Source of the DNA: a virus
IMG/VR virus record: IMGVR_UViG_3300045988_013649
Coordinates: 1-20,455 of that record
DNA length: 20,455 nt
Direction: 5' to 3' (one strand)
Within the stretch, counting starts at the first letter, position 1, and the number at the start of each line of letters is the position of its first letter. Of the stretch, positions 2,876-16,621 are shown piece after piece. A model generated the notes under the pieces. That model did no database searches. It saw only the letters and a program-made list of their open reading frames with translations, and had not been told where the DNA came from. The position numbers and the translations under genes were made by a program.

Positions 2876-3382
2876 TTATACTTCTGATGTACCTTCTGTA
2901 AATGTTACTGTTCCATCTGCTACCTTTGCAGTACCGACACGAATATCACTTGCAAAGTTAATGTTGAAGTTGATTTTTGAATCGACACCACTTAATGTGT
3001 CAAAGATTAATTTAGTGTCAACTTCCCACGCTTTATATCCTTTTGTTTTGTCTCCGTCAAACATGAATACAAGTAAAGCTTTTGTGTTTACTTCTTCATT
3101 GTCCGGAACGGATTTCATCATTTTTTCATAGATGTATTCGAAATCATCTTCACCTTTAATCATTGTTAAATCTTGTGCAATCTGAGGTGAATAACTCTTC
3201 AATGATTCTGTAGGATTCTTATCTGCGATAAAGTCATATGTCTCCGTTTCACTGTTAAATGAAATATCCAAAGTTGTAGACTTCTTGATACGCTTGTACC
3301 CTGTTCCCATTTCCAAGAACAAACCAATCATATACTTTTTGACTGTTTGTCCTACGCTTACTTCAGTTCCTTGAGTTGTTAT
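2876..3382 (-). CDS. major tail protein (start placed at ATA 3380-3382)
   Basis: The track ORF is 2876..3331, but its ATG has no SD. The frame is open back to 3385, just after an in-frame TAA at 3386-3388. SD AAAGGAG (3391-3397) lies 8 nt before the ATA. The product is a beta-rich ~168-aa protein in the canonical tail-tube position. Confidence 0.75.
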   Translation of the reverse strand: MTTQGTEVSVGQTVKKYMIGLFLEMGTGYKRIKKSTTLDISFNSETETYDFIADKNPTESLKSYSPQIAQDLTMIKGEDDFEYIYEKMMKSVPDNEEVNTKALLVFMFDGDKTKGYKAWEVDTKLIFDTLSGVDSKINFNINFASDIRVGTAKVADGTVTFTEGTSEV

Positions 3383-3801
3383 TAATTAAGCTCCTTTCTG
3401 TATTTAATTTGAATAGTTAATGCATATACTGCTTGACTATCCTCATTTGTGTATAGATATAAACCACTTGAAACGGAAACATCATCACAATATTTGTTTC
3501 CGTCTAGTTGTGGTAATTCTCCATTTAAATTCTTTTCGTCAATCCATTCTCCTAATTCTTCTAAGAAGGAATTGTTGTCTTGTCTCTCGGATTCAATCTG
3601 TGTATTCCTACGTGCTAGAAACGTATAGTATTCAGTACGCATTTGAGAGCCGTCAATGTATGTATCTACAATTGCGTTAGGTTCTTTGTATAACGCATAA
3701 GAGATAGCTTGTTGCGCTAAAACATCCGTTTCAATACGTTCATCTATCTGTATATTTCCATATCCATATAGCCATTGAATCAACGCTTTTGATACTGTCA
3801 T
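3382..3801 (-). CDS. neck / tail-completion protein (position-based)
   Basis: This is a 139-aa ORF with an ATG in an ATGA overlap with the upstream gene. SD GGAGGT lies 5 nt upstream. It is the last of four small genes between the capsid and tail tube genes. Confidence 0.6.
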   Translation of the reverse strand: MTVSKALIQWLYGYGNIQIDERIETDVLAQQAISYALYKEPNAIVDTYIDGSQMRTEYYTFLARRNTQIESERQDNNSFLEELGEWIDEKNLNGELPQLDGNKYCDDVSVSSGLYLYTNEDSQAVYALTIQIKYRKELN

Positions 3802-4160
3802 TCACTACCTCCTATCATTTGTTGTGCTTTCTTTAAGATTGTTTCTGCTCCGCCATTTCGCATAGCTTTTTCAAACCAATGGTCTGTTTTACCACCAACG
3901 AAATGAGCGCCCTCTTTGTTGTAATACCAACGTCTTGCATATGGAGCACTTGGTCCACCTTGCTTTACTAATCCGCTACCGATTTGAGTATTTCTTGTAG
4001 CCGAGTTGATTAATGCTCCTGTATCTCTAGGCGTATAAGGGGACATAAGCCTAATGACTTCAGAATCAATCATTTGTTGAACTCGTCCACGTTCTTCAAG
4101 TCCTCTTGATTGCTTAATTTGGGGAATTGATTCAACATCAAGTTTGACTTTCATTCCTAT
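3798..4160 (-). CDS. HK97 gp10-like head-tail joining protein
   Basis: The sequence MKVKLDVESIPQIKQ...SPYTPRDTGALINS...YARRWYYN fits the gp10-family pattern (P..TG.L..S). The start is either ATG at 4152-4154, 16 nt from GGGAGG, or ATA at 4158-4160, 10 nt from the SD and overlapping the upstream TAG as ATAG. The track start at 4232 is nested in the upstream gene. Confidence 0.65.
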   Translation of the reverse strand: MGMKVKLDVESIPQIKQSRGLEERGRVQQMIDSEVIRLMSPYTPRDTGALINSATRNTQIGSGLVKQGGPSAPYARRWYYNKEGAHFVGGKTDHWFEKAMRNGGAETILKKAQQMIGGSE

Positions 4161-5016: not shown

Positions 5017-5886
5017 TTACTTAGCACTAGCAGATAAGTAAATACCTGCTACCTTATTTGCGTATACATCAACGATTCCATACTTACGATATTTCAATAC
5101 ATCTGAATCTGATTCAATGTTATTGCTTGCAGGAATTACATTTGAAACGGTGTGTTTATCCCATTTCATTACGGCAGGTTTATGAACAATCAAGAAGTTG
5201 ATTACGTGTCCATCTTCTGCCTTTTCGTATCCGCCATCTAACTCTGTATCTTTTCCACTCAACAATTTGATTTTTGTATAGAAACGACTAGCAGGTACAG
5301 GAACAACTTTTGCGAATCCTTGTAAAGCTTCACGAGATTTGTATGTATCTAATGCCTTAACGCCATTTAATAATGTAGGTGTAGCATACAAGATACGTTG
5401 TTCGCTAGGAACTTCATCTTCATCCATTTTAGTAGTTGCCGTTAATAATGCGCTCAAGAACTCTTCTGAAGTTGTATAATCTTCGGCAACTGTTGTGATT
5501 CCTGTTGTTCCGGCAATTTTAGCAAATGTATAAGCGTCTGCTTCCGGTGCTACCTTTGTACGCATTAATTCTGCTCCTGCCATACCGAACGCAATATTCA
5601 TTGATTCGGCATTGTCTTGTGTATCGACTGAGATTTTAGTTCCTCTATCATAGTCGAATGTAGCAGTTTTCCATTCTAACTTAACTGAGTTACCTGTATA
5701 ACCACTATTTCTATCATAGTTTCCTAAACCTTTGACTGAAATTTGTGGATAGATGATTTCTTTTGCGTTCGCTCCTGCTCGTACCATTGTAGCGTCTGCA
5801 TTTAAATCACCTGTTACTGAAGCTAACTTATACACCTCATCTAGATTTGAGACATACGTTTTAGCTAGTGCAATTTGATTTGGTAT
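5017..5886 (-). CDS. major capsid protein (start placed at ATA 5884-5886)
   Basis: The track ORF starts at GTG 5835, which has no SD. The frame is open to 5889, after an in-frame TAA at 5890-5892. SD AAGGAGG (5896-5902) lies 9 nt before the ATA. The extended N-terminus is IPNQIALAKTYVSNLDEVYKLASVTGDL. The body (GLGNYDRNSGYTGNSVKLEWKTATFDYDRGTKISVDTQDNAES) looks like a Firmicutes-phage capsid family, and the gene follows the scaffold gene. Confidence 0.85.
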   Translation of the reverse strand: MPNQIALAKTYVSNLDEVYKLASVTGDLNADATMVRAGANAKEIIYPQISVKGLGNYDRNSGYTGNSVKLEWKTATFDYDRGTKISVDTQDNAESMNIAFGMAGAELMRTKVAPEADAYTFAKIAGTTGITTVAEDYTTSEEFLSALLTATTKMDEDEVPSEQRILYATPTLLNGVKALDTYKSREALQGFAKVVPVPASRFYTKIKLLSGKDTELDGGYEKAEDGHVINFLIVHKPAVMKWDKHTVSNVIPASNNIESDSDVLKYRKYGIVDVYANKVAGIYLSASAK

Positions 5887-7810: not shown

Positions 7811-7966
7811 TTAAACTTCATTATTAAATTCAATTAATTCTTTATATTCTTTTTCGGTAAGCTTCCCTTTTTCAAAAGCTTGCTCAACCAAGAATAAATA
7901 TGAATCTTTGCTATACTTACCTTCGATAACTCTTTTCTTCTGATTACTCAAGATTCTGTACATCAT
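7811..7966 (-). CDS. XkdX-like small protein
   Basis: The internal ATG at 7964-7966 has SD GGAGGA 5 nt upstream. The product is 51 aa: MMYRILSNQKKRVIEGKYSKDSYLFLVEQAFEKGKLTEKEYKELIE. This matches the XkdX-family pattern (..KG.IT.EEY.EI) as I recall it. The track start at 7999 is nested in the upstream gene. Confidence 0.6.
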   Translation of the reverse strand: MMYRILSNQKKRVIEGKYSKDSYLFLVEQAFEKGKLTEKEYKELIEFNNEV

Positions 7967-8135
7967 TAACTTCCTCCGTTTCTTCCTCAGGTAATTCAAT
8001 ACCTGCCATGCATGCTACATACTGAGTGATGAATTTCTGATTTTCTAATTCGTCTTTTGTAGTTTGAACTTGTGAAGCTTGATACTCCTCTTGAGCTTGT
8101 CTTTCAATTGATGTCTCTAGTTGTTTGATTTTCAT
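7944..8135 (-). CDS. small acidic hypothetical protein (XkdW position)
   Basis: This is a 63-aa ORF with an ATG start and SD AAAGGAG 7 nt upstream. Confidence 0.6.
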   Translation of the reverse strand: MKIKQLETSIERQAQEEYQASQVQTTKDELENQKFITQYVACMAGIELPEEETEEVNDVQNLE

Positions 8136-8158: not shown

Positions 8159-9343
8159 CTATGCAATGCAAACAAGCGGACTGCAAGCAAACGCACTACT
8201 CGCATGGCTATTCGTGATAGTACCATTAGAGTACACAAGCCACGTATCATAAGCATTGTAGCGAACGGATGAACGCAAACGAACGCTCTGAGCCGATGTT
8301 TTATTTGCGACTGAGTATCCAATCATATTTGGATACTCAGTCAACCATTCACAAGGGATTGTACGTCCACTTCTTCTTTTCCAATAGGCGTGTACATCAC
8401 CTTCTCCACTCGTCTGTGGTTTGATGAACATCTGAGATAACGAAGGTAACGTAACGTAATCATATGTAATATCCTCTGCACCTTCATCATTTACAGTGTT
8501 GGCATAAGTAACTACCTTTACTTTTTTTAAGCAATTTAGCATTTTCTCGGGCATACCACAAAGGAATCCGTCTTTACCTGCTAATTGGTCAGGGCAAATA
8601 TCCCATTGGTCTTGTGGAGTCCACCATTGTCCTTTTGGTTTGCTTGAATTTAAGTACTGTCTTAAAACAGATGTTTTCCATCTGTTCCATCCATATGCCA
8701 TTTCTTGCATAGAATTTAAATTCCCACTTCTACTATCGTATTGTATTGTTCCTAGATTTGTTCCACCACTGCCAACAGTAACATTAACTGTTTCATTTAG
8801 CGTGATTCCATCTTTACCGTATGAATAAACCTTCCAACTTGATGGTGTGGTATCTGGTGCTCCGTAACATCCAGCTAATCTACCACCTTTTTCTACTGGT
8901 TTAGTCAATGTGAATTGGTAATTGATTCCTGGTTTAACATTGCTTCCCCATTCTTTCACAAAATCAAAATGATATGTTCCTACTGCTAATCCATTAGGGC
9001 ATGCTATAAAAGCCCTTTGGTGTGAGAATTGAATACCAAAAGGCAAAGTATAGTGCGATTGTAGCCACATTCCCGGAACTACTTCTCCGTCCTCTAAAGT
9101 TACATCTTCAAAGTGGTTTACTTGCCACGGAATATCATATTCCTTTAGCTCTGCGGTATCTGTCCATTTCTCGATTAATTGCGTACCAATTGCAAATGCT
9201 TTTTCACCCGCACCATCTGCAACGATTGTTTGAACACTATTCCAATCCATATTGGAATGTGCGATATTTGTTTGAGCAATTACAGATAAAGCTTTTGCAA
9301 TTTCTTGTCCTGTATATTCTGTTAGAATTCTTTTCTTACTCAT
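8159..9343 (-). CDS. putative receptor-binding / fibre distal protein
   Basis: This is a 394-aa ORF with an ATG start and SD GGAGGT. The C-terminal pattern SVRLRSSVRYNAYDTWLVYSNGTITNSHASSAFACSPLVCI resembles DUF6273-type ends (W.LRS...V...G....RP). The function is inferred from its neighbours. Confidence 0.5.
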   Translation of the reverse strand: MSKKRILTEYTGQEIAKALSVIAQTNIAHSNMDWNSVQTIVADGAGEKAFAIGTQLIEKWTDTAELKEYDIPWQVNHFEDVTLEDGEVVPGMWLQSHYTLPFGIQFSHQRAFIACPNGLAVGTYHFDFVKEWGSNVKPGINYQFTLTKPVEKGGRLAGCYGAPDTTPSSWKVYSYGKDGITLNETVNVTVGSGGTNLGTIQYDSRSGNLNSMQEMAYGWNRWKTSVLRQYLNSSKPKGQWWTPQDQWDICPDQLAGKDGFLCGMPEKMLNCLKKVKVVTYANTVNDEGAEDITYDYVTLPSLSQMFIKPQTSGEGDVHAYWKRRSGRTIPCEWLTEYPNMIGYSVANKTSAQSVRLRSSVRYNAYDTWLVYSNGTITNSHASSAFACSPLVCIA

Positions 9344-9545
9344 CGTCTACCTCCTGAACAATATATCCTTCTTCGTCTACAGATAAACCTAGTGCATCAA
9401 ATCTCTGCTTTAATGCACTGATTCCTAAAGCAGTATCTAATTGTTGTACTGTACATTTCTTTGTGCTTTCTTCATCTTCAATAATTAGTAAATTTTCTTT
9501 TTTTATGCCGTTTGAGCTAGGCAAATCTTCTATCTTTACTCCTAT
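9336..9545 (-). CDS. small fibre-anchor-like protein with N-terminal KIxDLP...TKK motif (start placed at ATA 9543-9545)
   Basis: The frame opens after TAG at 9549-9551. SD GGAGGG (9552-9557) lies 7 nt before the ATA. The product begins GVKIEDLPSSNGIKKENLLIIEDEESTKKCTVQQL, which resembles the common tail-fibre N-terminal motif. The track TTG start at 9524 cuts through that motif and is 14 nt from any SD. Confidence 0.6.
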   Translation of the reverse strand: MGVKIEDLPSSNGIKKENLLIIEDEESTKKCTVQQLDTALGISALKQRFDALGLSVDEEGYIVQEVDDE

Positions 9546-9548
9546 TCG

Positions 9549-10937
9549 CTACCCTCCATAATTGATATTTGCTTTAATATCATTTCCATTATTGAAATAT
9601 ATCTTTTTAACTTTTTTTATAACTCCGTTATCGTTATACCAAACCTTAGCTTGAATTAATTTCCCTGTATCAGAAATCATTTCTGCTAATAGAACATTTC
9701 CTTTTTTATCTGTTATTTCAAATCCATCTTTAGTTAAGATAGCTTCTTGATAATCAATAACATGATATGCAATCTTTGCTTGGTCTGCAGGTGTCGTAAA
9801 TCCCACGTTAGCGTAATCTGAAGGAGTGCCGAAATCATCTACAATTCTAATGTAGAATGTGTATATAGTTTCCGGTACTAAATCATCCACAACTAACTTT
9901 GTTTGCGTCTGTAAATCCTTCCATATTATTCCATCATATGAATACTGATAATAATATGAGTTTGCACCTTCTTTAATTTCAAAACCACTCCAAGTAAATG
10001 TAGCTCCAAACGGATTCAAATCTGTATAACTTACACTTCCTTTGCTAGGTTTATCCGGTTTGGTAGTTTTAAACACTACCTTTACTGAATCAGAAGGTGT
10101 GCTAAAGTTATCAACAATTCTTACATAATATGTATATTCAGTATTAGGGCTTAACCTTGATACTTCAAATCCTGTCCCTTTTGACCTATCTATCCAATTA
10201 TTATCATCAGTAGATGATTGATAATAATAATCTGTTGCACCTTCTTGAATGCTAAATCCACTCCATGAAATATAAGCAGATTTATAAGTAATATTAGAAG
10301 CTTCTACCTTTCCTGCTTTTGGCTTGTTTGGTTTCTGAGTCTTTATAAATTTGCTAACAGGATTTTCTAAAAGTACACTTGTATCTCCTCGGTATCTTAC
10401 ATAGCAATTTACCTCGTATTCTTTGTTTGGGGTTAATCCCTCAAATTTTCCTTCAGTGCCGATTTTAGAAGTCTTATCTAAAGTTGCTTTAATTGTGTAG
10501 AAATTATAAGGATTTGATTCCAAAGTAGCTTTATAACTTACAGAATTATAAGTACTGCTTAATTCAATATCTTTGATTTTCGGTATAGATATAGTAGCTG
10601 ATTCAGTTTGCAAACCACTTGCAGAAATATTTCCGAAGCTAGTACTAAAATATATATTTCTAGAATCTTCTCTATTATTCGTAGAAAATGAATACTCTAG
10701 TGTTCCACTAGCTAATGCCCACGTTCCTGCTCCACCTGTGTTTATGTTTACAGTATGGCTATTGTATCCAAAATAAATAACTGCTCCATTGTATTGCGTT
10801 GAGTTATTATAAAATGCGTGTTGTAGATAAATTGTATATGAAACTTTATGTTTAATGTTCGGATATGTTCCTTCTATGTAATTGCTACAATCTACACGAA
10901 AGCTAATTCCATGTATACCTGTATAATAAGTAGCCAT
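9549..10937 (-). CDS. structural protein with tandem FN3-like domains
   Basis: This is a 462-aa ORF with an ATG start and SD AGAGGTG. Two ~90-aa repeats (aa 202-292 and 293-382) each carry W..F...EGA..YYYQ....W..........L.P.T.YT.Y.RIVD.F.TPSD. A weaker third copy lies at aa ~120-200. The N-terminal domain is beta-rich and DUF859-like. Confidence 0.75.
   Translation of the reverse strand: MATYYTGIHGISFRVDCSNYIEGTYPNIKHKVSYTIYLQHAFYNNSTQYNGAVIYFGYNSHTVNINTGGAGTWALASGTLEYSFSTNNREDSRNIYFSTSFGNISASGLQTESATISIPKIKDIELSSTYNSVSYKATLESNPYNFYTIKATLDKTSKIGTEGKFEGLTPNKEYEVNCYVRYRGDTSVLLENPVSKFIKTQKPNKPKAGKVEASNITYKSAYISWSGFSIQEGATDYYYQSSTDDNNWIDRSKGTGFEVSRLSPNTEYTYYVRIVDNFSTPSDSVKVVFKTTKPDKPSKGSVSYTDLNPFGATFTWSGFEIKEGANSYYYQYSYDGIIWKDLQTQTKLVVDDLVPETIYTFYIRIVDDFGTPSDYANVGFTTPADQAKIAYHVIDYQEAILTKDGFEITDKKGNVLLAEMISDTGKLIQAKVWYNDNGVIKKVKKIYFNNGNDIKANINYGG
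9792..10334 (-). repeat. in-frame tandem duplication encoding two FN3-like modules
   Basis: Copy 1 (10062..10334) reads KPNKPKAGKVEASNITYKSAYISWSGFSIQEGATDYYYQ...YYVRIVDNFSTPSDSVKVVFKTT. Copy 2 (9792..10061) reads KPDKPSKGSVSYTDLNPFGATFTWSGFEIKEGANSYYYQ...FYIRIVDDFGTPSDYANVGFTT. Confidence 0.85.
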
Positions 10938-10940
10938 AAA

Positions 10941-11702
10941 CTACACCTCTAACTGAAAATAGAAATATCCTGCAGGACAAGTTTCTAAAGTTGGTACATC
11001 TGTACCTATCTTGTATTTAATTTCCTGTCTTGCTTTTAATTCCATCTGTTCTTTTTCTAAGTCTTGAATCATTAAAAGAAGCTTTCCACCTTCTCCTTCT
11101 CCAAGAACATCTTTAACAATTGCGAACCAATCATCCCATGCTTTTTGATTCTCTTGTATAGCTTTTGCGTATTCTTTTTTTGCTTCTGCTATTGCTTCTG
11201 CAAATTGGTTAAAGAATTGTGTTGTATCTATCTGCTTAATTGCGTTTGTAACAACTCCACATCTACTTGAATCTAATCTAGTATCAGTAATATCTGAGCC
11301 TTTAATTTCTGTTGAGTTACCTTGTACCTTTACAGTCGCTAAAACTAAATCATAGATAGAATCTGTTCTTGTGATTGATTCACTAGCTACTACACTAATA
11401 TTTCTATAAGAATCGTTGTCGTTTAATCTCAATACAATATTGTATGTCTTTGTGGAACTAGAATTTGTTAATGTGATGGTTTCGTCGTCTTTTTGCCAAT
11501 AGAACGCTCCATTAATGTTTGCTCGTCCTGCTTTAATTGTTAATGTTAAGCCTTGAGCTTTCTCAACTCTTAAATGGTCTGTACTAGAATCATCTACGAA
11601 CACGCCGTTTGTAAAGTAGCTTGAGAACAATCTTCTGAAAGCGTCATATAATACTAATCTATCACCATTTCTAGAGATGAATGGAAAATATGTTGTTGCT
11701 AT
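10941..11702 (-). CDS. tail-fibre-like protein (start placed at ATA 11700-11702)
   Basis: The track starts at TTG 11630. The frame is open to 11708, after an in-frame TGA at 11709-11711. The extended N-terminus is ATTYFPFISRNGDRLVLYDAFRRLFSSYFTNGVF, which matches the YFPF.S..GDR.Y.A..F...F..NGVF motif of prophage fibre proteins as I recall it. The ATA overlaps the portal TAG as ATAG. SD GGAGAGGAGG is at 11713-11722. Confidence 0.7.
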   Translation of the reverse strand: MATTYFPFISRNGDRLVLYDAFRRLFSSYFTNGVFVDDSSTDHLRVEKAQGLTLTIKAGRANINGAFYWQKDDETITLTNSSSTKTYNIVLRLNDNDSYRNISVVASESITRTDSIYDLVLATVKVQGNSTEIKGSDITDTRLDSSRCGVVTNAIKQIDTTQFFNQFAEAIAEAKKEYAKAIQENQKAWDDWFAIVKDVLGEGEGGKLLLMIQDLEKEQMELKARQEIKYKIGTDVPTLETCPAGYFYFQLEV

Positions 11703-13102
11703 TCTTCTTCATCCTCCTCTCCATCATCTTGAATTTCTTCATTTAATAACTCTGTTGCTTCTTCTTCAGTAAAGCCATATTGTTTCATGAAATACATAAT
11801 CTTTAATCTTGGAATATCAAATGTTAATGCGTCATTTCTTAACGCTTGTGCAGTGCTTTGCTTATCTTCGATATAAGTATCATCATAATCAATAGCAATG
11901 TCTAATGAATTAATATTAAGCTTTCTTCCTTGCGTTAATTCATAGAAGTATGCTATTGCTTGAATAATACCTTGAATATATGCAGTAGATTCTTTGCGTT
12001 GTGAGTTTACTTCCTTCATAGCGTCTTGATTCTCACCGATATATTCTGTTGCCGTTACGATTCTTCCACTCTCAAACGTGTATTTTTTTGTACCGAATCC
12101 AAACATCATAGATAAGATACTTAATGCAGTTTCTAACGACTGCACAACCTCTTGTGTTCTAACTGTTGGATTATATTCTTGCCATAAAGCTTTTTCTTCC
12201 GGCAACTTGTCTCTACCCAATTGCACGAAGATATTCTTTAATTGTGGATTCTGTTTCACTTTTCCGTTCTTGTCTTTCTGCATTAATGCTTCATTTACAA
12301 GAACGATTTTATCTGATTTCAATAAATCTCGATTCCACATTGTCATTGTCAAGTCAATTGTTTTCAAAGGAGCAATTGCACTCCAAATCTTAGGCAAGCC
12401 GTACCCTTGCATTTGTAAGTTGTTTACCTTTGCATTTCTCATAATTGCAAAAGGTTTAACCACATCTAATTGAACAATCTGAGCACGCTCTTTTATTTCC
12501 TCGCCTGTATCTTTGAAGTAATGTGTTTCTGCAATATATCTTTCGTCTTGTCCTTTTAAGAACATGACCATCACATATACTTTTTTTAACTTCTCATAAT
12601 TTACTCCAACGAAAGCTACCTCAACGATTTCATCATTGATAACAGTTAATGGGAGGATATTCATTGAATCACAATAGTTGATTCTGATTTCTCCTCCACT
12701 AAATGAACCATCTTCATAAATCTCGGCATTTGATACCGTCACATAAGCTCCTACTGTTCCGTTTGCAGACATTTGCTCAACTTGTTTCCTATACATTACA
12801 TCAAACCTATTCTTTGTTAGAATGTCTGAAATAATGTCATTTGTTGTACTGTCTTCAGTTGCGTTTATATCTAGGATTTCAATTAGGTTTGCGTCATCTT
12901 CGCATAAACGCTTTGCAAAGTCTGTCTTGTCTAGCGTGTATTCCTCATTGTTCAAGGTGTATGCCGTATGAAATTCTGTTTCGGTATTTGTGTACCACTT
13001 GTTGCACAATTCAATAATCTCAATTGCGTTTGTATCTACATAATACCCTCTATCGTTTAGGTAATTTTGAAACCACGGTCTACGTGTGTTAGATGTTTCT
13101 AT
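11699..13102 (-). CDS. portal protein, SPP1 gp6-like (start placed at ATA 13100-13102)
   Basis: The track starts at TTG 13009. The frame is open to 13105, directly after the terL TAA at 13106-13108. A perfect SD AAGGAGG (13109-13115) lies 6 nt before the ATA. The extended N-terminus is ETSNTRRPWFQNYLNDRGYYVDTNAIEIIELCNKWYTNTETEFH, which fits portal N-termini (..gy.v......I..W..WY.....FH). The protein is ~467 aa, has an acidic C-terminus, and follows terL. Confidence 0.88.
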   Translation of the reverse strand: METSNTRRPWFQNYLNDRGYYVDTNAIEIIELCNKWYTNTETEFHTAYTLNNEEYTLDKTDFAKRLCEDDANLIEILDINATEDSTTNDIISDILTKNRFDVMYRKQVEQMSANGTVGAYVTVSNAEIYEDGSFSGGEIRINYCDSMNILPLTVINDEIVEVAFVGVNYEKLKKVYVMVMFLKGQDERYIAETHYFKDTGEEIKERAQIVQLDVVKPFAIMRNAKVNNLQMQGYGLPKIWSAIAPLKTIDLTMTMWNRDLLKSDKIVLVNEALMQKDKNGKVKQNPQLKNIFVQLGRDKLPEEKALWQEYNPTVRTQEVVQSLETALSILSMMFGFGTKKYTFESGRIVTATEYIGENQDAMKEVNSQRKESTAYIQGIIQAIAYFYELTQGRKLNINSLDIAIDYDDTYIEDKQSTAQALRNDALTFDIPRLKIMYFMKQYGFTEEEATELLNEEIQDDGEEDEEE

Positions 13103-13105
13103 TTC

Positions 13106-14440
13106 TTACCTCCTTAAATCTATATATCCACTATGGGTTATAAATGTATAGCAGAACGAATCCCAATCATCATTGATATTGTTTACGTTCTCATCTATTG
13201 GAATGTCTTCCTTTTTATCCCATACCAATTCGCTTAATGCGTTTATTAAGTTCTTACAATGTTCTTCTATCTTTAGCCTACCTGTAACAAGTAAGCTATC
13301 AACCGTTATAGGACGGTCTGCAAGCTCATTCTTCTTAACTGGTGCAATTATACTTCCGTCTAATCCTTCGGCGTAAAAATAAGCTCTAAGCGTGTTTATA
13401 AGTGTATTTGAAGCACTATCCGGAAATATCCACTCTACATATCCGTAACATTCAACACAACGCTTATAGAACCTTACAAACGCTTTGCAAAACTTTGTTG
13501 CGTCTATTGCATTTGACTTTGCCATGTCTCCTTCATCAAGTGCCCACATATAATCCCAATCATTTGTAAACCCTGTTAAGTGCCATGAATACTTTGAGCC
13601 ATTGTCTCCAAAGTCAACACCTATGATTAAATGACTAAACCTTTTTCCTTTTTCATTCATCTTTTCTTTTAGACTCTGATATTTAAATAAATAAGGTTTG
13701 CAGTCATTTGCAAAATAAGGGAATACAAGTCCTTCGGCTTCTTCCCTTTGTCCTTTTATGTCTCTTTTGTAATAAACGCTATTCTTATCGTATGATTTCA
13801 AGACTGTTCTTATCTGCTCATCACTTAAAGAATAATTGTCAACTAAGGTGGTATGCCCATAGTTGTAACCATATGTAGAATCTTTATTCTGTTGCTCCTC
13901 ATGATATTTCAAGAAATCTGTGTAATACCAATGATTCTTGCCTTTTGGGTTTAAATCATGAAATATCTTTCTATCGCTTGACGCTATCGTTCTATCCATC
14001 ACTTCTTGTAGAAACTCAATGCAACAAAGGTTTGCTTCTGTTACATATGCCATTCCATAAGAATAACCATGTATTGCATTCTCTGAGCCTTTCTTAGCAC
14101 CACCGGCAAAGAATACAACCTTTTCTCCAACCTTTGTGTTGATGTAATAACAGTCTTTACCTTCATACTTTCCCACTTTGAATCTATTCGCAAAGTAGTT
14201 CTGCAATCCATATCCATTACAATCTCCAATATTAACACGTGCAGATGATGTATCTGTTCCTGCTATTAAATGGAACTTATCCGGATGTGTTTCTAAAGCA
14301 ATACAGAAAGCGTATGTATTTAATACATTCTTTCCGCCTCTTTTCCCACCTTCTAATACATTAAGCCATGAATCGAATGTTCTTTTAAGATAAGTTAATT
14401 GTTTTTGATTGAAAGGCGCAGGCTTATTCAAAATCTTCAA
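13106..14440 (-). CDS. terL: terminase large subunit (PBSX / Terminase_3-like)
   Basis: This is a 444-aa ORF starting at TTG 14438-14440, which is the first possible start after an in-frame TAG. It has a Walker-A-like LEGGKRGGKN and an N-terminal PFNQKQ motif. It overlaps the terS end. Confidence 0.9.
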   Translation of the reverse strand: MKILNKPAPFNQKQLTYLKRTFDSWLNVLEGGKRGGKNVLNTYAFCIALETHPDKFHLIAGTDTSSARVNIGDCNGYGLQNYFANRFKVGKYEGKDCYYINTKVGEKVVFFAGGAKKGSENAIHGYSYGMAYVTEANLCCIEFLQEVMDRTIASSDRKIFHDLNPKGKNHWYYTDFLKYHEEQQNKDSTYGYNYGHTTLVDNYSLSDEQIRTVLKSYDKNSVYYKRDIKGQREEAEGLVFPYFANDCKPYLFKYQSLKEKMNEKGKRFSHLIIGVDFGDNGSKYSWHLTGFTNDWDYMWALDEGDMAKSNAIDATKFCKAFVRFYKRCVECYGYVEWIFPDSASNTLINTLRAYFYAEGLDGSIIAPVKKNELADRPITVDSLLVTGRLKIEEHCKNLINALSELVWDKKEDIPIDENVNNINDDWDSFCYTFITHSGYIDLRR

Positions 14441-14813
14441 TTCTTCTTTCTTTTGCTACATCTGTAATCATAGCTTTATTAATTGCATTTACTTCTGAAG
14501 CGTCAAAATGTGTTTCTACCTTATCTGATTGACCTAGGAATTGTTTGCCTAAGAAAATAGCCATTGCAGGACTCTTTGAAGCTAGTTTAAATTGCGCTCT
14601 TCGTAACGAAATTCTTCCTTGTGCGCCGAACCTTTTTAAACATTCGGAGAAATCAGTTCCATATGTACGTTTGCACCATTTTGATAGTGTCTTATCTGTC
14701 GTGTTAAAAAAATAGCATACTTCTGCTTGCGTGCATTGAATAGCTAACAATTTTTCAAATTCTTCTTTGTCGAAATCCTTGTTAGGTCTTCCAACTTTTC
14801 CATTCGCTATTAT
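14424..14813 (-). CDS. terS: terminase small subunit with HTH (start placed at ATA 14811-14813)
   Basis: The body LAIQCTQAEVCYFFNTTDKTLSKWCKRTYG...ISLRRAQFKLASKSPAMAIFLGKQFLGQSD is a typical terS. The conserved N-terminal GRPNKDFDKEEFEKL lies upstream of the track TTG at 14750. The frame is open to 14825, after TAG at 14826-14828. The only start-like codons there are ATA ATA (14808-14813), 5 and 8 nt after SD AAAGGGG (14819-14825). Confidence 0.85.
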   Translation of the reverse strand: MIANGKVGRPNKDFDKEEFEKLLAIQCTQAEVCYFFNTTDKTLSKWCKRTYGTDFSECLKRFGAQGRISLRRAQFKLASKSPAMAIFLGKQFLGQSDKVETHFDASEVNAINKAMITDVAKERRIEDFE

Positions 14814-15222: not shown

Positions 15223-15243
15223 AACCGAGACAAACGCTCGGTT
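15223..15243 (-). terminator. candidate intrinsic terminator downstream of the tRNA-like gene
   Basis: On the minus strand the hairpin AACCGAG-CGTTTGT-CTCGGTT has a 7-bp stem and is followed by CTTTTAATAA. Confidence 0.4.
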
Positions 15244-15397: not shown

Positions 15398-15473
15398 TGG
15401 TTGCAGGAGAAGGATTTGCACCATTCGACCTCTAGCTAATAAGACTAGTGAGCTACTACTGCTCTATCCTGCT
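15398..15473 (-). tRNA. tRNA-like gene, anticodon UAU (reads AUA), initiator-like acceptor and D arms; non-canonical T arm
   Basis: Hand-folded minus strand: AGCAGGA TA GAGC AGTAGTA GCTC A CTAGT CTTATTA GCTAG AGGTC GAA(T)GG TGCAAAT CCTTC TCCTGCA A CCA. All four stems form and the CCA is encoded. Anomalies are an A1xA72 mismatch, a bulged U in the T stem, G55 in the T loop, U37, and a short D loop with a single G. Confidence 0.55.
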
Positions 15474-15488: not shown

Positions 15489-15496
15489 TGAAAAAA

Positions 15497-15513
15497 TGCT
15501 CACATTGTGAGCA
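15497..15513 (-). terminator. rho-independent terminator of the late-activator gene
   Basis: On the minus strand TGCTCAC-AAT-GTGAGCA has a 7-bp stem and is followed by TTTTTT. The TGA stop at 15500-15502 lies inside the stem. Confidence 0.7.
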
Positions 15514-15826
15514 CTTTCTTTAAATTCTTGTTTATTTTTCTTGGAATTTCTTCTCTTGCATAACCTACAATATTAGATGTCTTTTCTGCACTGAATCCCT
15601 TTATATATCTATACTCAATCATGGCTCGAGTCGTATCATCAAGTTGGCTTAATTTGTCTTTTACATAGTTCATTCTTCTTGCATAATCTGCATGAGCTAA
15701 GAATAGCTCGGCTTTTAAAGGATAAATTGCTTCATCCCTTTGTAACTCTGCTATCTTTTGCTCATAGTATGTATAAGATTGGCATTCACACAAGAAGTGT
15801 CGTTTTACATCTTCATAGGTGCTCAT
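15500..15826 (-). CDS. late-gene transcriptional activator, sigma-70 region-4-like HTH (RinA/ArpU/DUF1492-like)
   Basis: This is a 108-aa ORF with an ATG in an ATGA overlap. The C-terminal LDDTTRAMIEYRYIKGFSAEKTSNIVGYAREEIPRKINKNLKKV fits the region-4 HTH pattern. It sits in the canonical position just upstream of the terminase genes. Confidence 0.6.
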   Translation of the reverse strand: MSTYEDVKRHFLCECQSYTYYEQKIAELQRDEAIYPLKAELFLAHADYARRMNYVKDKLSQLDDTTRAMIEYRYIKGFSAEKTSNIVGYAREEIPRKINKNLKKVLTM

Positions 15827-16017
15827 GAACTGTATACCTTATACAATCTATCTTTTAATTCGCCAACTTCACTTCTTAATTTCTTGATTTCTTTAGCTTG
15901 AGTATGAATTGTTTCGTTTCTTTCTTTTATAGTCTGATTAAGCTTAATATTTGTCCTTCCTAATTTATTATTCTTTGAAATTAACTCTTTAATCCTTTCT
16001 TCATAATTCATTTCTAT
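15823..16017 (-). CDS. small coiled-coil hypothetical protein
   Basis: The track start GTG at 16024-16026 lies inside the SD (GGAGGTG) itself. ATA at 16015-16017 is 8 nt from the SD and ATG at 16009-16011 is 14 nt from it. All three are in frame, so the start is ambiguous. Confidence 0.6.
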   Translation of the reverse strand: MEMNYEERIKELISKNNKLGRTNIKLNQTIKERNETIHTQAKEIKKLRSEVGELKDRLYKVYSS

Positions 16018-16033: not shown

Positions 16034-16621
16034 TTAATTTAATGTCTTTATAAAATCACAATATCGTTTTATATAGCTCCATTTGTTTGAATATTTGTAA
16101 TATTTGCTAGAATGCTCTCCTACACTTATTTGACTTATCCCTATAACATCTTTACTAGGAATTACTAATACATCTAAAACTTTTTCATCATCACTAAGTA
16201 TGTACAAGATATATATGTCGCAAGTTGGATATATTTTTTCTAAATTGAATGTGTAAAAGCTCCCATTCCTACCTCTGTATAAAGTACTCGCTTTCACATC
16301 AACTTTTACACATTCATTCACTAAAATATCATACGGATGTTTTGTAGACATTTTAATAGCTTCATATCCTTTATTCTCTATATAATCCATGAATTTCAAT
16401 TCATATTTTCTGCCGAAATTTGTTCTACTTGGTTTTGATTCTAAATGTAATTCTTTCGCTAAAGGAAACCATAAATTTCTTTTTGAAATTGCATTGCCTA
16501 ATTTTGAATCTCCATAGTATTCTTCAACTTCTCTTCTTGTAGGCATTCTGTTTAATCCTGTATCAATAATCATTTCTTTGATTTGTGATTTTATCTTTTC
16601 TTCTGTCCAGTGTTCTCTTAT
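16034..16621 (-). CDS. PD-(D/E)XK-like nuclease (possible free-standing homing endonuclease or resolvase)
   Basis: GRKYELKFMDYIENKGYEAIKMSTKHPYDILVNECVKVDVKAS gives an E...D...(D)xK arrangement like Hjc/restriction-fold nucleases. The frame is open upstream of ATG 16573, which has a poor SD, back to 16624. ATA at 16619-16621 lies 6 nt after GGAGGT (16627-16632). The extension reads REHWTEEKIKSQIKE. Confidence 0.55.
   Translation of the reverse strand: MREHWTEEKIKSQIKEMIIDTGLNRMPTRREVEEYYGDSKLGNAISKRNLWFPLAKELHLESKPSRTNFGRKYELKFMDYIENKGYEAIKMSTKHPYDILVNECVKVDVKASTLYRGRNGSFYTFNLEKIYPTCDIYILYILSDDEKVLDVLVIPSKDVIGISQISVGEHSSKYYKYSNKWSYIKRYCDFIKTLN

Follow-up and report, generated by a model that had tools for sequence, protein, structure and literature searches.

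A putative phage initiator tRNA with a UAU anticodon and matching AUA start codons in a gut phage genome

Stop-codon recoding with phage-encoded suppressor tRNAs is known from crAss-like and Lak phages, and elongator tRNA-Ile(UAU) is known from Mycoplasma mobile, from a Bacillus subtilis tilS suppressor, and from phage T4, which carries a tRNA-Ile of this kind. At initiation, the tRNA-Met of animal mitochondria (f5C34) reads both AUA and AUG. Initiator tRNAs with changed anticodons were reportedly the subject of classical work by Schulman and RajBhandary, and a classical anticodon-switched tRNA-fMet is said to have initiated with Ile. In the engineered orthogonal initiators (amber tRNA-fMet(CUA), i-tRNA(AAC), and anticodon-switched tRNA-fMet with Ile, Val, or Phe), the body is that of an initiator, the anticodon has been altered, and translation starts at the complementary non-AUG codon behind a Shine-Dalgarno (SD) sequence; engineered initiator tRNAs are described in two preprints (bioRxiv 10.1101/2021.05.25.445580 and 10.64898/2025.12.21.695813). 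So far, the pairing of a dedicated initiator tRNA with a non-AUG start codon is known only from such engineered systems, and our full-text literature searches returned no report of either a natural initiator tRNA(UAU) encoded by a phage or a phage that uses AUA as a start codon. Here we describe a gut phage, IMG/VR virus record IMGVR_UViG_3300045988_013649, of which positions 1 to 20,455 were analyzed (20,455 nt; hereafter, the window). Both halves of such a pair are present in this genome: an initiator-type tRNA gene with anticodon UAU (15398–15473, minus strand) and at least seven genes with an ATA start codon behind an SD sequence. From comparison of the sequences, we consider it likely that the phage encodes a functional initiator tRNA, with an anticodon that has gone from CAU to UAU, for the recoded A-AUA starts of its genes.

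The locus resembles each of the described systems in part. Whereas the engineered initiators are laboratory constructs, the phage tRNA is natural, is conserved in diverged phages, is matched to the starts of essential structural genes, and adds a complementarity between U37 and an A at position −1 of the mRNA. As in phage stop-codon recoding, a phage tRNA would enable translation of phage genes that the uninfected host reads poorly or not at all; there, however, the suppressor acts in elongation at in-frame stops, whereas here the tRNA would act in initiation at start codons, its anticodon is UAU, and the window genes have no in-frame stops (translation table 11). A reading of the anticodon loop as a shifted UUA (ochre) anticodon was rejected on the same observation. 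As in animal mitochondria, AUA would be a genuine start and the tRNA is altered at the wobble position, but the mitochondrial system uses a single tRNA for initiation and elongation, a modified C34, and a changed code, whereas the phage tRNA would serve initiation alone, in addition to the host's initiator, and its U34 is encoded in the genome. Confirmation would make this the first case in nature of an initiator tRNA dedicated to a non-AUG codon and coupled to recoded starts, that is, a viral "start-codon recoding," and it would supply an orthogonal pair of initiator and start signal, already tested by evolution, for Gram-positive hosts.

The minus strand at 15398–15473 folds into a 76-nt cloverleaf with an encoded CCA, as an initial annotation made from the sequence alone had proposed, and the Rfam tRNA covariance model RF00005 matches it over its full length (48.8 bits, gathering threshold 29, E = 7e-8); related tRNAs score 49 to 56 bits. 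From 5′ to 3′ the gene comprises the acceptor strand AGCAGGA, a UA linker, a D arm with stem GAGC/GCUC and loop AGUAGUA, a single A, an anticodon arm with stem CUAGU/GCUAG and loop CUUAUUA, the variable loop AGGUC, a T arm GAA(U)GG-UGCAAAU-CCUUC with a bulged U, and the acceptor strand UCCUGCA followed by A73 and CCA. The individual features named in that annotation are all there: A1xA72, G2:C71, C3:G70, A73, and A11:U24 in the body; anticodon UAU and U37 in the loop; a single retained initiator G:C pair, G30:C40, in an anticodon stem that otherwise reads A29:U41 and U31-G39; the bulged T stem; and G55. Its statement that the D loop has a single G is correct for the G18G19 position, where only one is found, but not for the loop as a whole, which has two.

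Pattern scans of IMG/VR and metagenomes recovered approximately 100 loci with this element. Among the 27 contigs with full flanks, conservation is 98.9% over the element and 100% over its positions 1 to 50, compared to 96% in the upstream coding flank and 63% in the downstream spacer. In an alignment of 14 variants, the cloverleaf is 99.6% paired and 12 of 20 pairs have changed on both sides, with compensatory changes in three stems; none of 500 shuffles reached the family value, and slid controls were ∼45% paired. The stems vary under one CUUAUUA loop, with anticodon stems CUAGU/GCUAG, UCGGU/GCCGA, and UUGGU/GCCAA and acceptor strands AGCAGGA or CGCAAGG, and every family member has the anticodon UAU. 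Within the window's clade, the tRNA is present at every locus with enough upstream sequence, seeming absences having been traced to the end of a contig, to a 3-kb insertion, or to one mismatch. A diverged lineage represented by loci L087 and L038, whose proteins are 48% (TerL), 62% (portal), and 54% (capsid) identical to those of the window phage, keeps a C1xA72 version directly upstream of the small terminase gene terS. The tRNA gene is under selection and is not a relic. A decaying tRNA pseudogene or integration-site remnant without function might be suspected from the noncanonical T arm, G55, U37, and weak anticodon stem of the window copy, from the lack of an ARAGORN call, and from a folding z-score that is not significant. 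Such a remnant would be at odds with complete conservation of positions 1 to 50 beside a spacer at 63%, with compensatory substitutions in all variable stems, with retention of the encoded CCA, and with maintenance of the gene in a lineage ∼50% identical in protein; moreover, the gene does not lie beside an integrase. We give this explanation almost no weight.

The initial annotation had also listed the bulged T stem, G55, and the single G at 18/19 as signs of nonfunction, but these are lineage specific. Loci L037 and L038, with the same anticodon loop as the window, combine a canonical T arm with GG in the D loop; in L037 the T arm is wholly canonical (GGAGG-UUCAAAU-CCUUC). Compared with the L037 tRNA (7928–8003; G18, U55, no bulge), the window copy shows G18 to A and U55 to G together with the T-stem bulge, and the bulged base varies across the window lineage (U, C, or G). 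This joint change may represent a compensatory remodeling of the tRNA elbow, a region contacted by initiation factor IF3.

The body of the tRNA is of initiator type. Thirteen of 14 variants have a mismatch at 1:72, and G2:C71, C3:G70, A73, and the entire D stem including A11:U24 are invariant in all 14. The mismatch is C1xA72, as in bacterial tRNA-fMet, in L038 and L087 and likewise in L083, L109, and L116. A73 and A11:U24 are additional determinants of formylation. The published determinant for methionyl-tRNA formyltransferase (Fmt) is the 1:72 mismatch with the 2:71 and 3:70 pairs (PMC5389676). BLASTN of the tRNA against Escherichia coli genomes gave no match, the query being too short, and we instead aligned it explicitly with the E. 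coli genes metZ, metT, ileX (CAU), and ileV (GAU) from NC_000913.3. The window tRNA is far closer to the initiator metZ (67% identity) than to the elongators for Met, Ile2, and Ile1 (metT, ileX, and ileV; 51 to 53%), and the family as a whole shows the same separation (67 to 77% versus 47 to 56%). The aligned elongators have the reverse arrangement at 11:24. The likeness to tRNA-fMet that the initial annotation had noted for the D arm GAGCAG..GUAGCUC, the variable loop AGGUC, and the 3′ end GCAACCA is borne out by the E. coli initiator. Taken with the conserved Fmt determinants and the matching ATA start codons, the metZ-like body supports the earlier proposal of an initiator-like tRNA reading AUA.

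The tRNA fits neither standard class completely. With bacterial tRNA-fMet (E. coli metZ/W/V/Y) it shares the 1:72 mismatch, G2:C71, C3:G70, A73, A11:U24, the D arm, AGGUC, the encoded CCA, and G30:C40. It differs in having UAU rather than CAU, U37 rather than A, U31-G39, and one (window) or two (L033, L037, and L038) initiator G:C pairs, in being phage encoded and matched to AUA rather than AUG starts, and, in the window lineage, in its bulged T stem and A18/G55 elbow. Because it lacks the CAU anticodon and the three consecutive G:C pairs, we do not file it as tRNA-fMet. Of the three initiator pairs (29:41, 30:40, and 31:39), not all of which are kept in the window, G30:C40 is retained in 13 of 14 variants, and L033, L037, and L038 read GC/GC/UG. 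In E. coli, the middle pair G30:C40 is enough, as is G30 by itself, and initiators with an au/GC/gu stem occur naturally (PMC5389676); the au/GC/ug stem of the window tRNA is therefore not disqualifying, which largely answers the earlier objection that a single G:C pair marks a nonfunctional gene. Such a stem would be one tolerated in an initiator.

An ordinary elongator tRNA-Ile(UAU) is the alternative suggested by the anticodon, which is complementary to AUA, and by ARAGORN, which labels the related tRNAs "tRNA-Ile (tat)," including that of L033 with the same T arm as the window copy. Such a tRNA would serve internal AUA codons, of which the phage has 15.8 per 1,000, as the phage T4 tRNA that reads AUA does, and AUA starts would be left to the host tRNA-fMet, inefficiently or in a context-dependent manner. 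The body of the phage tRNA, however, is not that of tRNA-Ile: the window copy lacks a Watson-Crick 1:72 pair, A37, and an Ile-type body, with the identity of only 51 to 53% to E. coli Ile tRNAs given above. The mismatch at 1:72 found in 13 of 14 variants disfavors EF-Tu binding in E. coli, and U37 is unable to form the t6A37 typical of elongators that read ANN codons. The start codons of the phage genes bear on this alternative as well.

We scanned stop-to-stop frames on the gene strand for an SD sequence followed by ATA at the top of the frame; a first start-site statistic, which counted any triplet 5 to 9 nt past an SD, was too noisy and was replaced by this top-of-frame test. At least seven window genes have a strong SD at the top of the frame, ATA 5 to 10 nt further on, and an in-frame stop 0 to 5 codons upstream, and the first canonical start in these frames lies 17 to 31 codons in and has no ribosome-binding site. 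All seven are on the minus strand. The small terminase subunit gene terS (14424–14813) begins AAAGGGGAUGUA-AUA-AUA-GCG; its first canonical start, a TTG, is 21 codons downstream, and the match to phrog_309 begins at residue 17, upstream of that TTG. The portal gene (11699–13102) starts with ATA at 13102 behind AAGGAGGU at a spacing of 5, in the context uuuAAGGAGGuaagaa AUA, with an in-frame stop two codons upstream and PHROG homology reaching upstream of the TTG. The next gene, for a head protein of phrog_1220 (10941–11702), has its ATA at 11702 in an AUAG overlap with the portal stop, and residues 3 to 229 align with profile positions 8 to 257. A small open reading frame (ORF) (9336–9545) has ATA at 9545 behind GGAGG, and one relative has ATG at the same codon. 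The major head protein gene (5017–5886) starts at 5886 behind AAGGAGG in the context aAAGGAGGauuuaauua AUA, with an in-frame UAA two codons upstream, and residues 3 to 288 of its product align with positions 3 to 294 of the 297 of phrog_422. A protein of phrog_3099, a family of unknown function, starts with ATA at 3382 behind AAGGAG (2876–3382); its first ATG is residue 18, residues 12 to 167 align with positions 6 to 169 of 171, and its place after the head genes makes it likely to be a tail protein. The seventh gene lies in the early/middle region and encodes a phrog_28936 protein (16034–16621) with ATA at 16621 behind GGAGGU, which gains 17 profile positions over the ATG-start version. Two further minus-strand starts are ambiguous: SD-ATA-GAA-ATG at 15823–16017, where the start is ATA 16017 or ATG 16011, and SD-ATA-GGA-ATG at 3798–4160 (ATA at 4160), the L087 orthologue of which starts at ATA with no ATG nearby.

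Homology supports starts at these ATA codons. Translation from ATA extends PHROG homology upstream of the first ATG, GTG, or TTG in the capsid, head protein, portal, phrog_3099, phrog_28936, and terS genes. The capsid sequence ATA-CCA-AAT-CAA-ATT aligns with the ATG-GCx-AAC of homologues (M-A-N-x-I..., M-P-N-A-I...) at exactly that codon, and six homologues have Met1 at the position of the window ATA (Eggerthella phage PMBT5, Ruminococcus phage RG-TP1, MT835795, MT835475, MT837006, and bajarodcaudo virus 4). Similarly, terS of the L087/L038 lineage (ATA-GCT-AAA-GGA-AAG-TAT) aligns with that of RG-TP1 (ATG-GCG-AAA-GGT-AAA-TAT). The ATA is kept at orthologous sites in portal (76/76), head protein (71/71), phrog_28936 (18/18), terS (17/17), and another gene (12/12). 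Six of the seven window ATA starts are in packaging, head, and tail genes. A strict rule confining ATA starts to late genes was nevertheless rejected, since the window has one in an early/middle gene and, in relatives, the replication initiator and a RusA-like resolvase are also ATA started. Public gene calls shorten all of the ATA-start genes (portal, 436 aa versus 467; capsid, 272 versus 289; head protein, 229 versus 253; terS, a 46-aa fragment), and no Pfam match is recorded for the portal and capsid products so shortened. Because standard gene callers truncate such genes and tRNA finders call the tRNA Ile or miss it, the phenomenon is invisible to current pipelines and could be more widespread. 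In vivo, AUA with the normal initiator gives ∼1 to 2% of the AUG level, a value reported secondhand in PMC5499595, which makes the normal initiator alone an implausible means of producing the capsid and other major virion proteins.

ATA starts and the tRNA occur together. We counted frames of at least 80 codons with an in-frame stop no more than 5 codons upstream, an SD 5 to 9 nt upstream, and no canonical start within two codons. Carriers of the tRNA (the window, L096, L125, and L087) have 14 ATA-only ORFs and 19 with a canonical start (14/33), compared to 2 and 83 (2/85) in eight noncarriers totaling ∼205 kb (Fisher p = 1e-7, for lineages that are not independent). Both noncarrier cases are dubious, one lying on the noncoding strand and the other having U at −1, and neither the Rfam model nor ARAGORN found a UAU initiator-type tRNA in the noncarriers. 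The diverged L087/L038 lineage has "uga/uaa AUA" starts for terS, portal, capsid, and two other genes.

The base before the start codon is complementary to the unusual base after the anticodon. A stands at −1 in 18 of 19 nonredundant ATA starts (binomial p = 6e-10), the exception resembling an internal codon; elsewhere in the same phages, A precedes 40 of 68 ATG starts and 26% of internal in-frame ATA codons. Across orthologues this A is invariant (portal, 76/76; head protein, 71/71). In E. coli, position 37 of tRNA-fMet pairs with mRNA position −1: over ∼45,000 mRNAs and with A37U and A37G variants, complementarity raised translation, and A37U variants favored A or G at −1 (Hollerer and Jeschek 2023, PMC10018350; see also Esposito et al. 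2003, as cited there). In both settings, the nucleotide following the anticodon is complementary to the one preceding the start codon; the E. coli studies describe a modest modulation centered on A37:U(−1), whereas U37:A(−1) is essentially invariant at the natural phage starts. The U37 and A(−1) of the phage are the complementary natural case. Their pairing would strengthen an otherwise all-A:U codon-anticodon helix, and A at −1 would bias ATA sites away from the host initiator, whose A37 favors U at −1. U37, which the initial annotation had taken as a sign of nonfunction, is matched by the A at −1 of the ATA starts, and its natural covariation with that base bears on the long-debated extended codon-anticodon interaction at initiation. 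The reciprocal combination, A37 with U at −1, would be sought in contigs with a CUUAUAA-loop UAU initiator, but these barely use SD sequences, are GC rich, or look TAG recoded. On the other side of the start codon, +4 is G at 14 of 19 nonredundant ATA starts across carrier loci (starts such as window 13102, 11702, and 9545; p = 0.002), mostly in GCN Ala codons, versus 12 of 68 ATG starts, where A dominates. The +4 G may come from the Ala-2 bias known for highly expressed genes, or the UAU initiator may require such a context.

These patterns return us to the elongator alternative. An A(−1) that matches U37 in 18 of 19 starts and in only 26% of internal ATA codons is not what a tRNA serving internal codons would produce, and such a tRNA leaves unexplained why ATA starts are confined to phages that carry it. 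On the other side, the Ruminococcus phage RG-TP1 carries an elongator tRNA-Asn in the same genomic slot, locus L148 has a UAU tRNA without ATA starts, and AUA works with the normal initiator in vitro (PMC5499595). On balance, we regard an ordinary elongator as improbable.

A different account starts from the concentration of changes in the anticodon stem-loop (31:39, 34, and 37). In this account, the stem-loop of a replacement initiator diverged to escape a nuclease or toxin of VapC type that targets tRNA-fMet, or the tRNA acts as a decoy, and the ATA starts are secondary. One study reportedly proposes that phage tRNAs with mutated anticodon loops evade tRNA-targeting defenses (PMC10264068), and a temperate phage would meet host toxin-antitoxin systems. 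A replacement initiator, however, should keep CAU, both for the majority of starts, which are AUG, and for charging by methionyl-tRNA synthetase (MetRS). The consistent UAU and the A-AUA sites kept down to 50% protein identity point instead to dedicated decoding, and Pfam and PHROG searches found no link to a nuclease or toxin among the genes of the tRNA neighborhood. We consider an origin in defense evasion quite improbable, and return to a dedicated initiator for AUA starts as the preferred interpretation.

Computation establishes the tRNA gene and the selection on it, the initiator type of its body, and the AUA starts, which co-occur with the tRNA and match its U37 with an A at −1. Several observations nevertheless weigh against a functional AUA initiator. 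ARAGORN, run on the window, called no tRNA, and the single-sequence folding energy of the gene indicates no unusual stability (z = −0.96); we do not take the ARAGORN result as a refutation because sister variants are called, among them L033 with its identical T arm. The bulged T stem, G55, and A18 could weaken the elbow, and a promoter scan found no sigma-70-like site directly upstream of the tRNA. MetRS depends strongly on C34, and E. coli isoleucyl-tRNA synthetase (IleRS) uses t6A37, which U37 cannot form, so that both are only candidates for the charging enzyme. The carrier lineages number only two to three and are related, so that the co-occurrence statistics are not independent. In L148 (IMGVR_UViG_3300045988_058182), a UAU tRNA on a similar scaffold (915–987) stands in a genome with no ATA starts. 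Finally, in vitro, in the infA context, an AUA mRNA competes well with AUG using the normal initiator (PMC5499595), and some contribution of host tRNA-fMet is therefore possible. As to the L148 tRNA itself, it has the UUGGU/GCCAA anticodon stem and GAGC/GCUC D stem found in the family, but U1:A72 is paired and position 37 is A; its genome is that of an unrelated AT-rich, SD-using gut phage whose terL, portal, and capsid genes have canonical starts.

From the sequence we infer a scheme running from expression through charging, formylation, and P-site use to a biological payoff. Start codons would have changed from AUG to AUA in the phage's small terminase, portal, head protein, major capsid, and likely tail protein genes and, in relatives, in those of the replication initiator and RusA-like resolvase. 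The tRNA would be transcribed from the lytic operon and then aminoacylated. MetRS leans heavily on C34, and Ile, attached by IleRS, is therefore the more likely amino acid, with Met possible. Host formyltransferase would then act through the 1:72 mismatch, G2:C71, and C3:G70, along with A73 and A11:U24. IF2 would bring the charged tRNA to the 30S P site, where the check by IF3 and 16S rRNA would be passed by virtue of G30:C40, and the four-base signal A-AUA would be paired by U34-A35-U36 and U37. The result would be efficient initiation at codons that the host tRNA-fMet (CAU, A37) reads poorly. The payoff may be a translational lock or threshold on the lytic genes of a temperate phage, or insulation of the phage when the initiator tRNA comes under host control or attack; alternatively, ATG may have drifted neutrally to ATA under AT pressure once the tRNA was present, which would have made the tRNA indispensable. 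A simple switch for late genes only is not supported, because the replication initiator and RusA-like resolvase of relatives are ATA started too. In a more far-reaching version, which we put forward tentatively and with some doubt, A-AUA read by UAUU would constitute a private, host-orthogonal start code with near-obligatory quadruplet pairing, capsid, portal, terminase, and other virion proteins would probably begin with formyl-Ile rather than formyl-Met, and the phage RNA, on which translation of key lytic genes would hinge, would serve as a translational lock or timer for the lytic program. Two questions become testable with this system: which amino acid starts the ATA-start proteins and how IF3 treats a cognate AUA:UAU pair.

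All genes around the tRNA are on the minus strand, in the order SSB, phrog_28936, a small ORF, a 108-aa weakly sigma-like gene, the tRNA, a DUF6275 gene, terS, terL, portal, and the head and tail genes. The 108-aa gene upstream of the tRNA (15500–15826, ATG start) is a putative late regulator, weakly sigma-factor-like by its match to phrog_1740 (E = 4.6e-4), and has no Pfam match. The flanking terminator-like hairpins described earlier were both found, each on the minus strand. One, read from the sequence as UGCUCAC-AAU-GUGAGCA followed by U6 (15491–15513; palindrome 15497–15513), overlaps the stop codon of the sigma-like gene and ends 17 nt before the 5′ end of the tRNA; the other (15223–15243) lies ∼155 nt downstream of the tRNA, just ahead of the DUF6275 gene. 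Pfam and PHROG searches of the tRNA neighbors and of the early region of locus L009 gave no formyltransferase, deformylase, aminoacyl-tRNA synthetase, or tRNA-modifying enzyme, and hence no phage-encoded partner. The close relatives L146 (1214–3339) and L147 (1224–3349) have an insertion between the DUF6275 gene and terS that encodes a ParB_N protein, a 224-aa ORF, and a QueT-family (queuosine-precursor transporter) protein; in some contigs this insertion puts more than 5 kb between the tRNA and the portal gene.

RG-TP1 has a sigma-like regulator at the position equivalent to that of the 108-aa gene, and its elongator tRNA-Asn(GUU) (L137, 5725–5799) occupies the slot between this regulator and terS in a genome with canonical starts. 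This shows that the slot is a recurrent tRNA cargo position. RG-TP1 also has a GP20-b RNA motif ahead of its scaffold gene (L137, 12429–12492), and MT835795 (L134), the closest tRNA-less relative by capsid, carries two type II hammerhead ribozymes and a RAGATH-28 RNA (241–312, 895–968, and 8186–8277).

The phage family is temperate, as L009 (reverse strand, 1–2406) encodes a tyrosine integrase and a divergently transcribed cI-like helix-turn-helix repressor. Two scans of 185,579 representative genomes gave no match to the tRNA and no prophage copy. When the tRNA region and the surrounding 6.5 kb were searched by BLAST against INPHARED phages, the sole match was the tRNA-Met of Mycobacterium phage Phabba, and hence there is no close cultured phage relative in that collection. 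The Phabba gene, annotated as tRNA-Met (L001, 1502–1576), has A1xC72, G2:C71, C3:G70, A11:U24, A73, and CAU and is 79% identical to the window tRNA; its anticodon stem, CUAGC/GCUAG, is likewise without the three G:C pairs.

Initiator tRNAs that look canonical except for one change, C34 to U (loop CUUAUAA, or CUUAUCA in L084), were found in L080–L131 and L149–L152, on diverse and often GC-rich metagenomic and viral contigs; the acceptor ends of those in L093, L098, and L118 are truncated. These tRNAs could be functional, could be pseudogenes, or could belong to further AUA-start systems. In L109 (1559–1633) and L126 (9388–9462), the latter a 95.8-kb metagenomic contig, a tRNA with an 8-nt anticodon loop, called "tRNA-??? 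(tgaa)" by ARAGORN, lies 8 nt from a UAU initiator-bodied tRNA with three G:C pairs, C1xA72, and A37. Many ORFs of L126 are broken only by TAG and have no start codons, which suggests a TAG-recoded phage. In the window itself, a 462-aa fn3-domain protein (9549–10937) and a 394-aa DUF6273 protein (8159–9343) are encoded between the head protein and the minor capsid protein, an unusual place within the head-morphogenesis block.

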